From NCBI RefSeq assembly GCF_003018115.1, contig NZ_CP027457.1: a stretch of DNA of 64,000 bases; one strand, given 5' to 3'. The translations under genes were made by a program, and so were the position numbers. Origin of the DNA: Escherichia coli. GTDB lineage: Bacteria > Pseudomonadota > Gammaproteobacteria > Enterobacterales > Enterobacteriaceae. The number at the start of each line of letters is the position of its first letter. Position 1 is the stretch's first letter. Below are positions 57,137 through 58,599 of this stretch, piece by piece. Below the pieces are notes generated by a model, which ran no database searches, was not told the origin of the DNA, and saw only the letters and a program-made list of their open reading frames with translations.

Positions 57137-57641
57137 GCAGGCACGCGATGCCCTGGATGCCTGGATAAGCCGACCAGGAATGACGCAGGAGCAGGCGACG
57201 ATATTAATTACTGAAGCCTTCTGGGCTCTACAGGAACGCCCGAACATCGATGTTCAGCGTGTCACGCTTGATGATGGCGGGGTTGATCAGCGTGCGCTTG
57301 GCGTTAACCGGGTGAAGATATTCGAACGCTGGAAGGCTATCGACACCAGGGATAAGCGTGAAAAATTCACGGCGCTGATTCCGGCAATTATGGAGGCTAT
57401 CCGGATTAGTGATTTCAGGTTGTACCGCGAAATTACTGACGGAAAAAGCATTACGTACATGATTGCCGGGTTAAACAAAGAATATGGCGATGTGGTGGAG
57501 TCCGGGCTGCTTTTTGCAGATCCAGCTGTTGTGGAACGTGAGACAGACGAGCTTATAGAAAAAGCAATCGCTTTCAAGCGTGCCTATCGTCACCAGTACC
57601 AACAAAAAGCCGGATGGAATTATGAGCCTTCTTTTTGCTGA
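57120..57641 (+). CDS. YdaT-like protein (cII-position, Rac YdaT family)
   Basis: 173-aa ORF in the position of Rac ydaT; shares the ...ALIPAIMEAI... segment as recalled. Confidence 0.6.
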   Translation: MKITLEQARDALDAWISRPGMTQEQATILITEAFWALQERPNIDVQRVTLDDGGVDQRALGVNRVKIFERWKAIDTRDKREKFTALIPAIMEAIRISDFRLYREITDGKSITYMIAGLNKEYGDVVESGLLFADPAVVERETDELIEKAIAFKRAYRHQYQQKAGWNYEPSFC

Positions 57642-58599
57642 ACGCCCGCTGGTTATAAACACACAGCTGGCGATGAAGATTGGTTTAAACGAAGCCATTG
57701 TGTTGCAGCAACTGCATTACTGGTTGAGGGATACCAGTTCCGGCATGGAATGTGATGGCGTTCGCTGGATTTACAACACAACGGAACAATGGCTGGAACA
57801 GTTTCCGTTCTGGTCAGAGTCAACGTTAAAGCGTGCGTTTGCAAGTCTGAAAGCGCTGGGGCTTTTGCGTAGCGAAAAGCTCAATAAATCGAAGCGTGAT
57901 ATGACTAATTTTTACACAATTAACTACGATAGCGCGCTTTTAGATGATGGCAAAGTGAACGAATCCATCGGGTCAAAATGCGCCACTCCATCAGGTCAAA
58001 ATGACACGATGGAAGAGGTCAAAATGAAACGTTCCATTGGTTCAAAACGGCCCAATGTCATCAGGTCAAAATGGCCCGATGATCCTACAGAGAATACAAC
58101 AGAGAATACAACAGAGAATACAACAGAGAATAAAAAACTCTCTTGTCCGGACGCTTCGCAACCGGACGAGTTGACGGCTGAACAGGCGTTTTTAACCCGC
58201 CATCCTGATGCTGTTGTGTTCAGCGTGAAAAAACGCCAGTGGGGAACCCGGGAGGATTTGACATGTGCGCAGTGGATCTGGGGGCGGGTTGTAAACCTGT
58301 ACGAACAGGCTGCCAGTGACGATGGTGAGATCACGCGACCGAAAGAGCCCAACTGGACGGCGTGGGCCAATGACGTGCGCACAATGCGGATGCTGGATGG
58401 AAGAAGTCACAGACAAATTTGCGAAATGTTCAGCCGGGCACAACGGGATCCGTTCTGGATAAAAAACATCAAGAGCCCGGAAAAACTCCGTGAGAAATGG
58501 GATGAACTGGTTATTCGACTGTGGCGTGGTCCCGCGCAGCGTTGCGTGAATCATATTTCTGAACCGGATACCGAAATTCCGCCGGGTTTCAGGGGGTAG
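57622..58599 (+). CDS. phage replication initiator (O-like / YdaU-like) with internal iterons
   Basis: ORF 57580..58599 (start uncertain, probably MSLLFAERP at 57622); N-terminal LNEAIVLQQLHYWL winged-helix-like region; (TENT)4 repeat; precedes DnaC homologue. Confidence 0.7.
   Translation: MSLLFAERPLVINTQLAMKIGLNEAIVLQQLHYWLRDTSSGMECDGVRWIYNTTEQWLEQFPFWSESTLKRAFASLKALGLLRSEKLNKSKRDMTNFYTINYDSALLDDGKVNESIGSKCATPSGQNDTMEEVKMKRSIGSKRPNVIRSKWPDDPTENTTENTTENTTENKKLSCPDASQPDELTAEQAFLTRHPDAVVFSVKKRQWGTREDLTCAQWIWGRVVNLYEQAASDDGEITRPKEPNWTAWANDVRTMRMLDGRSHRQICEMFSRAQRDPFWIKNIKSPEKLREKWDELVIRLWRGPAQRCVNHISEPDTEIPPGFRG
58087..58134 (+). repeat. 4 tandem 12-bp repeats (acagagaataca) – candidate ori iterons
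   Basis: perfect tandem repeats followed by an A-rich stretch, inside the replication initiator gene as with lambda ori in gene O. Confidence 0.6.

Follow-up and report, generated by a model that had tools for sequence, protein, structure and literature searches.

Iterons are replicon-specific repeats to which a replication initiator binds (PMC5043065). In bacteriophage lambda, the iterons are inverted repeats bound by dimers of the O protein (PMC5043065), and a 40-bp A+T-rich tract, with nearly all purines on one strand, opens upon O binding (PMC5043065, PMC7466680); the O proteins also bind the single-stranded DNA (ssDNA) of their AT-rich tract (PMC7466680). For the unwinding 13-mers of Escherichia coli oriC and plasmid RK2, the exact sequence matters and not the AT content alone (PMC5043065). 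The lambda record annotates four iterons at nucleotides 349-433 of gene O, with spacings of 20, 24, and 23 bp. Here we analyze a stretch of 64,000 nucleotides (the window) from the E. coli contig NZ_CP027457.1, in which the segment 57943-58140 is probably a vegetative replication origin similar to the lambda origin (oriLambda), located in the linker-coding part of a prophage initiator gene and having 23-bp repeats as its iterons. The analysis draws on features that were directly established: the repeats, the anatomy of the gene, the constraint at the DNA level, the covariation of repeats with protein domains, the low stability of the DNA, and the protein homologies. A preliminary description of this DNA had placed a lambda-like origin in the linker-coding middle of the initiator gene, in agreement with the position, the anatomy, the composition, and the O-homologous C-terminal half of the product; it had also taken four 12-bp units as the iterons, which is not supported, as the unit is not replicon-specific and is the same beside at least 27 types of 23-bp repeats. 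The main features are the following:

57622-58599, plus strand: replication initiator gene, 325 amino acids (aa); phrog_391 'replication initiation O-like', E-value 1e-90.
57943-57965, plus strand: sixth, degenerate leftmost 23-bp repeat, GATGATGGCAAAGTGAACGAATC, in register with the array (repeat search).
57966-58081, plus strand: five 23-bp iterons, putative initiator-binding sites, with the dyad CATCrGGTCA-AAA-TGrCCyGATG.
58087-58137, plus strand: four 12-bp units ACAGAGAATACA (the last one being ACAGAGAATAAA) running into A6, variable in copy number (Tandem Repeats Finder, pattern search).
57934-58177, plus strand: suppressed synonymous variation, marking the extent of the DNA-level element (about aa 105-185; 15-codon windows).

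The repeat search revealed five direct repeats of 23 bp, with spacings of 23, 23, 23, and 24 bp; the repeated dyad is CATCAGGTCAAAATGaCcCGATG, and the array with its sixth copy spans 57943-58081. These repeats lie immediately upstream of the 12-mers and had been missed in the preliminary description. They are self-complementary at up to 16 of 23 positions. Four exact copies of the 10-mer GGTCAAAATG fall within 103 bp, and the rest of the window has none. At the position of the degenerate copy, Klebsiella phage Kp4882-3 has a better-preserved one, GATGAGGTCAAAGTGACCAAATC, and most close relatives have six iteron cores by an approximate regular-expression count. The 23-bp array begins at nucleotide 345 of the gene; the lambda iterons begin at nucleotide 349 of gene O. 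Together, the 23-mers and the 12-mers occupy gene nucleotides 322-516, which code for aa 108-172 inside a disordered stretch (aa 110-180). The five copies stand in codon phases 2, 1, 0, 2, and 2, the same DNA being translated as SIGSK, SGQN, and EVKM. Because the period is not a multiple of three and all three phases are used, the 23-bp repeat is a feature of the DNA and not a protein repeat.

In relatives of the N-terminal domain (N-domain) found by protein similarity, repeats of the same 23-bp period occupy the same place and have other sequences, including GGGCAAATTGCCC, GGGACAAATTGTCC (Hafnia phage yong2), GGGGCAAAATGC, GAAGAGGGCAAATTGCCCT (Erwinia phage PEp14), and GGGGCAAAATGCnCC (Klebsiella phage SopranoGao). 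The repeat sequence changes with the type of the N-domain, as is expected for specificity determinants. The 23-bp repeats are replicon-specific, in helical phase, and adjacent to an A+T-rich region, as iterons are, and the initiator would bind them. Compared with the 12-mers, they fit every iteron property better, so that the true iterons are probably the 23-bp repeats.

A DnaA box, TTTTACACA, found at 57910-57918, 30 bp to the left of the iterons, is one of two consensus matches in the 64 kb. It was rejected as a component of the origin, being kept in only 2 of 67 distinct relatives and a by-product of the conserved TNFYTI codons; no conserved DnaA box was found near the array among the 67 distinct relatives compared. 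A search of 56300-59500 against Rfam returned no match at E-values up to 1.

Tandem Repeats Finder reports the ACAGAGAATACA array at 58087-58132 (3.8 copies, 100% matches, score 92) as the best-scoring tandem array of the whole window. The pattern search resolves it into three exact copies and a fourth unit, ACAGAGAATAAA, at 58123-58134, and found no second 12-mer cluster of comparable kind elsewhere in the window. The array is in frame within the 325-aa open reading frame (ORF) and encodes TENTTENTTENTTENKK, a (TENT)n peptide; in this respect, the preliminary description of four ACAGAGAATACA-type 12-mers at 58087-58134 was accurate. It had also mentioned an A-rich tract after the 12-mers. Six A do follow directly (58132-58137), but the adjoining run is no longer than that, and the A-rich element is the 12-mer array itself. 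The 12-mers take the place that the A+T-rich unwinding tract has in lambda, and the segment 58082-58141 has 68% AT, 68% purine, and 55% A, compared to 73%, 69%, and 57% in the lambda tract. By nearest-neighbour energies, 58105-58144 is the joint least stable 40-mer of the initiator gene (free energy -45.1 kcal/mol) and belongs to the top ~1.2% of the window for low stability; the regional mean for 40-mers is -55.6 kcal/mol (standard deviation 4.1). Repeats of low stability, about one helical turn long, thus adjoin the putative initiator sites, which is the arrangement of unwinding elements of the 13-mer type.

To estimate the constraint on this segment, 53 genes of this architecture were aligned by codon and analyzed in sliding windows of 15 codons. 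The nucleotide diversity at third codon positions and at positions 1 and 2 was as follows:

N-domain: third position 0.334; positions 1 and 2 0.083.
Iteron segment (aa 108-154): third position 0.109; positions 1 and 2 0.111.
12-mers (aa 155-172): third position 0.020; positions 1 and 2 0.036.
C-domain: third position 0.373; positions 1 and 2 0.119.

The iteron segment loses the usual codon pattern, and its positions 1 and 2 are no more conserved than those of the folded domains, which is a mark of selection on the DNA. Only weak constraint on the protein is expected at aa 110-180, because the encoded linker is disordered (predicted local distance difference test, pLDDT, below 50). Two overlapping ORFs, 57996-58382 on the minus strand and 58037-58174 on the plus strand, were considered as a cause of the synonymous constraint and rejected: the constrained segment ignores the ORF limits, and the third-position diversity is 0.26-0.40 from aa 181 on, where the minus-strand ORF continues. 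In the loci found by protein similarity, threonine codons are ACA or ACT in 44 of 46 cases inside the arrays vs 45 of 143 elsewhere in the same genes, and glutamate codons are GAG in 23 of 23 vs 93 of 166. The third codon of the unit has the form A-N-T and codes for N, I, T, or S. The codon choice has the same direction in all eight protein-similarity loci, and the arrays show this bias also in phage genes from Pseudomonas and Erwinia with 58-60% GC.

The distribution of the CAGAGAnTAC unit was analyzed in a viral contig collection, which was scanned for two tandem units alone (pattern ACAGAGANTACNACAGAGANTAC) and gave at least 120 loci. Among the matches listed, all but two lie in the middle of ORFs of 190-390 aa; of the other two, one is a non-coding copy (L090) and one is truncated by the end of its locus (L093). 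According to BLASTP, the N-domain described here is present in 86 of the listed ORFs and absent from 34, and 10 of these 34 were scanned, all of them being PHROG replication initiators. Among the C-terminal domains (C-domains) of these initiators are the lambda-O-C type, Phg_2220_C, DnaB_2, and the DNA-binding domain of DnaT. In the 138 nucleotides upstream of the first unit, the strongest self-similarity falls at a lag of 22-24 nucleotides in 109 of 119 listed loci (exactly 23 in 103 of them) vs 4 of 114 controls, which were other segments of the same genes. After removal of redundancy, at least 27 different upstream 23-bp repeat types were obtained, most of them dyads around an A-tract. Conservation fades within about 15 bp past the last unit. 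The unit following initiator-gene iterons was found in phages of Proteobacteria and Firmicutes, and Staphylococcus phage 42E has the same layout. These comparisons suggest a superfamily with at least 27 iteron specificities and at least four kinds of C-domain, whose hosts range from Pseudomonas and Enterobacteria to Bacillus and Staphylococcus.

The spacing and the reading frame of the units were compared in 64 distinct arrays. Spacings are 12 bp (116 cases), 11 bp (7), 10 bp (1), and 13 bp (1). Units occur in more than one codon phase in 6 of the 64 arrays, and in all three phases in two arrays, for example in L045. In Bacillus phage TP21-L, three units with spacings of 11 and 10 bp read PETT, QRI, and PETT; in general, the frame-shifted units encode QRI or RDY. 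Because these six arrays use different reading frames, CAGAGAnTAC, recurring about once per helical turn, is maintained as DNA. No published description of the unit sequence or of this origin type was found in the open-access literature.

Several single loci deserve mention. In Flavobacterium phage elemoE (L222), at about nucleotides 375-400 of the gene, ACCAGATATAAACACAGATATAAA consists of two CAGATATAAA units 12 bp apart, located after repeats with a 22-bp period; CAGATATAAA may be the unit in diverged form, here in a phage of Bacteroidota. In the non-coding copy (L090, 1486-1508, minus strand), two units follow GGAAAAC-type repeats between a tail gene with its terminator and an excisionase/integrase; they may be what remains of an initiator gene, or an origin located outside any gene. 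DNA homology of the E. coli gene to Klebsiella phages ends at gene nucleotide 501, inside the array, and a different C-domain lies beyond. The 12-mer array is a mosaic junction, and throughout the collection C-domains of at least four kinds are connected to the N-domain through the same unit.

The number of units was compared across homologues, as had been proposed in the preliminary description. Close relatives of the initiator were the best 80 of 563 found by protein search, and distant relatives were fetched one by one. Among 66 distinct close relatives identified by protein similarity, 63 have three units, and 2, 4, and 5 units were found in one relative each. In the usual three-unit form, the units are non-identical (AAT, ATT, AAT), and in the lineage studied here they are identical; slippage to 3-9 copies occurs because the units of this lineage are identical. 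Thus, E. coli alleles with 0-1 substitutions in the rest of the gene have 3, 4, 6, or 9 12-mers. The 23-bp array does not vary among alleles of differing 12-mer count, as follows from the 0-1 mismatches. This outcome speaks against the 12-mers as iterons. As an in-frame and fast-evolving repeat of 3-9 copies, the array is a potential typing marker for the prophage, and its variation is a natural experiment on the required length of an unwinding tract.

An AlphaFold2 model of the initiator built from 33 homologues shows (i) a winged-helix N-domain with a helix-strand winged-helix pattern (aa 1-109), (ii) a disordered linker (aa 110-180, pLDDT about 28-35), (iii) a helical lambda-O-like C-domain (aa 181-302), and (iv) a disordered tail (aa 303-325). 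In BLASTP, aa 149-298 align with aa 141-270 of lambda O at 38% identity over 150 columns (E-value 7e-25), and the (TENT)n peptide aligns with the lambda O peptide encoded by lambda's A+T-rich tract; the N-terminal half has no BLASTP similarity to lambda O. No Pfam family, Phage_rep_O (PF04492) included, matches the initiator at E-values up to 0.01, and at values up to 10 there are only chance-level matches to unrelated families. Foldseek retrieved only winged-helix DNA-binding domains for the N-domain, all of them weak matches (E-value 0.04 or worse) that serve for the fold and not for family membership. In the O-like initiator of the preliminary description, the C-terminal half is homologous to lambda O and the N-domain is of another type.

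The tail of the protein has a separate affinity:

58528-58596, plus strand: C-terminal tail GPAQRCVNHISEPDTEIPPGFRG, initiator aa 303-325 (phmmer, NCBIfam DnaT).

The tail matches the last 23 residues of DnaT from E. coli and Klebsiella, including the Protein Data Bank (PDB) entries 6aep, 2ru8, and 9zbt, at phmmer E-values of 0.007-0.03, and corresponds to positions 158-179 of 179 in the NCBIfam DnaT model. A P-x-GFR[GS] ending is present in 64 of 66 close relatives and also on initiators with unrelated C-domains, such as that of Klebsiella phage Kp4882-3 (...VPAGFRS). The initiator is thus chimeric, combining a winged-helix origin-binding domain of non-lambda type with a lambda-O-type C-domain and a DnaT-like tail. 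As a lead only, the tail may mimic the tail of the host DnaT for reaching DnaB/DnaC or PriA. How DnaT recruits DnaB/DnaC is still unknown (PMC13377028), and the 2026 preprimosome paper gives no function for the extreme C-terminus of DnaT.

Other explanations of the 12-bp units were weighed against these data. If the four units were iterons, that is, double-stranded sites of specific initiator binding, this would agree with their being perfect tandem repeats, conserved as DNA, in the linker-coding part of the gene and beside an A run. However, the unit is identical beside at least 27 upstream repeat types and together with unrelated N-domain subfamilies and C-domains, and because of this identity it is unable to give replicon specificity. 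In addition, the units have one-turn spacing and no dyad symmetry, their number varies freely from 3 to 9 next to an invariant 23-bp array, and every iteron property is matched better by the 23-bp repeats; we regard this explanation as highly improbable. A very unlikely alternative, in our view, is that the 12-mers are mere coding low-complexity, a linker (TExT)n that changes by slippage, and that the origin consists of the 23-bp array and generic AT-richness or is located elsewhere. It accommodates the in-frame position of the array in a predicted disordered segment, the 3-9 copies in otherwise identical alleles, and the frame-preserving 12-bp value of 116 of the 125 spacings, but not the synonymous choices, which are fixed across hosts with genes of 31-60% GC. 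Nor does it explain why the amino acid of the third codon is free (N, I, T, S) while the first and third bases of this codon are kept, why the same DNA unit is read as QRI or RDY in six arrays, or why it always adjoins an iteron array.

The unit could also be kept mainly as a shared patch of homology, or 'linker sequence', at which a module of N-domain and iterons is swapped against C-terminal modules for helicase recruitment. The homology to Klebsiella phages that ends at nucleotide 501 inside the array, before a different C-domain, is in line with such swapping, as is the joining of the N-domain by the same unit to lambda-O-C-like, DnaT-type, DnaB_2, and Phg_2220_C domains. Yet selection for recombination potential is second-order and weak, and a patch conserved for any reason is expected to show mosaic junctions; the purine skew, the low stability, and the fixed place directly after the last iteron would be left unexplained. 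As the main cause of conservation, we consider this patch unlikely, and the idea is compatible with an origin at this locus, as its consequence.

The interpretation of the segment as an oriLambda-like origin, with the 12-bp units as its unwinding tract, has several points to its disadvantage. The segment 57883-57922, to the left of the iterons in the part coding for the N-domain, is as unstable as the 12-mer tract (-45.1 kcal/mol); because of this, the iterons are flanked on both sides by easily melted DNA, and melting may begin on either side. The tolerance of 3-9 units fits a spacer or a linker equally well as an unwinding element. Among 26 non-redundant origin types, 23 have the array within the least stable 5% of the gene, a result that follows in part, where genes are GC-rich, from the fixed unit sequence. 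The loci found by pattern carry the unit by construction, so that only their flanks, spacings, and frames are informative, and the codon counts take no account of the dependence among tandem copies and among related phages, which makes their p-values too favourable. In Vibrio OTA22 and Stenotrophomonas StM171, iteron-like repeats occur in the absence of CAGAGA units, and no origin, binding, or melting experiment on this element or its close relatives was found in the open-access literature.

With these points taken into account, the assignment of 57943-58140 as the origin retains the good confidence expressed above, and we lean towards the units being the place of first melting and helicase entry. 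From the established features, we infer binding, melting, helicase loading, and origin activity in the following order. Dimers of the winged-helix N-domain would bind five or six 23-bp dyads, which have A-tract centres and are about 2.2 helical turns apart, and the bound initiators would wrap the DNA, forming a complex similar to the O-some. This complex, on DNA that is supercoiled and under transcription from pR, would melt the adjacent 12-bp CAGAGAnTAC tract, which the initiator may keep single-stranded, as lambda O does. The lambda-O-like C-domain and the DnaT-like tail would then bring the host DnaB, aided by a prophage DnaC paralogue in place of lambda P.

Because the unit is the same across initiator specificities and recruitment domains, its reader must be common to all systems. 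Candidates for this role are a physical property of the DNA, a conserved mode of single-strand binding by winged-helix initiators, and a conserved host protein. As a tentative proposal that we hold with less than even confidence, the CAGAGAnTAC units would represent an undescribed sequence-specific origin element that is read by something common to all systems, either a conserved ssDNA-binding mode of the initiators or a conserved host replication protein, and that marks the helicase entry. Lambda-type origins need transcriptional activation, and under this proposal the purine-rich transcript of the units could favour an R-loop at that stage.

The neighbouring genes and signals include the following:

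58606-59346, plus strand: DnaC-like AAA+ helicase loader, 246 aa (Pfam IstB_IS21, E-value 6e-14).
56853-56882, plus strand: candidate pR-like sigma-70 promoter upstream of the cro operon (consensus scan, TTGACT-18-TACTAT, 9 of 12 matches), in a region where promoter matches are no more numerous than in shuffles.

The loader aligns end to end (residues 2-242) with E. coli DnaC (6QEL_G) at an E-value of 7e-70, in accord with the very DnaC-like loader of the preliminary description, and its Walker A motif is intact and aligned to GKPGTGKNHLA of DnaC. It scores 467 bits with NCBIfam PRK12377 (cutoff 389) and 296 bits with the DnaC equivalog model (cutoff 357); by these models, it is assigned to the prophage subfamily PRK12377 and not to the DnaC equivalog. 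A DnaC-like gene is the next gene after the initiator in only 4 of 55 non-redundant initiators with the same tail, and the usual genes in this position are small regulators or adenine methylases. In mEp460-type phages and prophages, the initiator is 88% identical and is followed by a DUF977/Ren-like gene, with no adjacent loader gene; these phages presumably rely entirely on the host DnaB and DnaC. The recruitment of DnaB, which had been deduced from the loader, is thus a reasonable expectation, but the loader itself is dispensable in relatives.

The gene order is cI-like repressor (56424-56831, minus strand), P22-Cro-like gene, YdaT/cII-like gene, initiator, DnaC-like gene, and a gene for a DUF1627 protein, and around the initiator it parallels that of the lambda pR operon. 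The initiator starts (ATG) before the YdaT/cII-like gene (57120-57641) has ended, and the two genes overlap by 20 nucleotides (57622-57641). The same 20-nucleotide overlap was observed in all annotated relatives, which suggests translational coupling. The region is a mosaic lambdoid E. coli prophage of the DicA/DicC/DicB type. An 8-kb region matches several E. coli chromosomes at 99.4-99.8%; in E. coli 2012C-4227, the initiator gene is 100% identical and the match is limited to the replication module (57108-60098, 98.5%). Of 5426 complete E. coli genomes, 1748 (about a third) have the initiator gene over at least 80% of its length. Other short tandem arrays of the window are located at 52852-52914 (21 bp x3), in an 823-aa exonuclease-like ORF (51986-54457), and at 50524-50559 and 47204-47239 (11 bp x3 and 12 bp x3).

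What had been a guess is now a precise map of the putative origin, with the iterons at 57943-58081 and the unwinding tract at 58087-58137. The replication module on this map occurs in roughly one in three complete E. coli genomes. Many of these come from isolates of the Shiga-toxin type, and in such strains phage replication drives toxin output (PMC7466680). A short motif common to dozens of origin specificities and found across phyla provides a simple sequence handle for locating phage origins. A review lists as an open question how DNA is opened by iteron-type initiators and passed to the helicase (PMC5043065), and the unit offers a defined substrate for studying this.

Comparison of the locus with oriLambda revealed a number of shared features: (i) the origin occupies the middle of the initiator gene and separates the coding regions of two domains, (ii) at least four replicon-specific dyad repeats are about two helical turns apart, and 4-6 dyad iterons with an A-tract centre and a spacing of 20-24 bp are common to this locus, oriLambda, and its six-iteron variants in Shiga-toxin phages, (iii) a promoter-distal A+T-rich tract of 40-60 bp has purines on the coding strand and low stability, (iv) the operon has the order cro, cII-like gene, initiator, and helicase recruiter, and (v) the C-terminal domains of the two initiators are homologous (38% identity). 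Dyad arms flank a TCAAAAYG centre in the oriLambda iteron ATCCCTCAAAACGAGGGA as well as in the iteron described here, CATCAGGTCAAAATGGCCCGATG. Other components are different. The iterons are 23 bp long and differ in sequence from those of lambda, which are 18-19 bp long; the A-rich tract consists of tandem CAGAGAnTAC units, whereas lambda has two ACAAAAGA motifs 15 bp apart; the N-terminal domain is not of the Pfam Phage_rep_O type; and a DnaC paralogue replaces P, the initiator having an extra DnaT-like tail.

As in E. coli oriC and RK2 oriV with their 13-mers, short repeats of about one turn form an A+T-rich, easily melted region beside the initiator sites. In contrast to those origins, the unit of 10-13 bp has another sequence and lies inside a coding sequence, and its opening would be by analogy; no similarity of the unit to the oriC/RK2 13-mer GATCTnTTnTTTT was established. 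With the initiators of staphylococcal RepA_N plasmids and of Bacillus phage SPP1, the protein shares a winged-helix N-domain, the N-terminal domains of RepA (4pql, 4pt7, 5kbj) being among its best structural matches, one of them a complex with DNA; these matches are weak (E-value at least 0.04, 15-19% identity) and involve no sequence-level membership. RepA_N plasmids and Bacillus phage SPP1 (G38P/oriL) likewise have origin repeats inside the gene of their own initiator, and we know of no CAGAGAnTAC units in either. The loader is homologous to E. coli DnaC over residues 2-242, yet it falls below the DnaC equivalog cutoff, and the initiator shares with E. coli DnaT only the last 23 residues and not the DnaT domains. 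Among these systems, the locus may be best described as a new variant of a known origin type, in which the conserved unit is the part that is possibly new.

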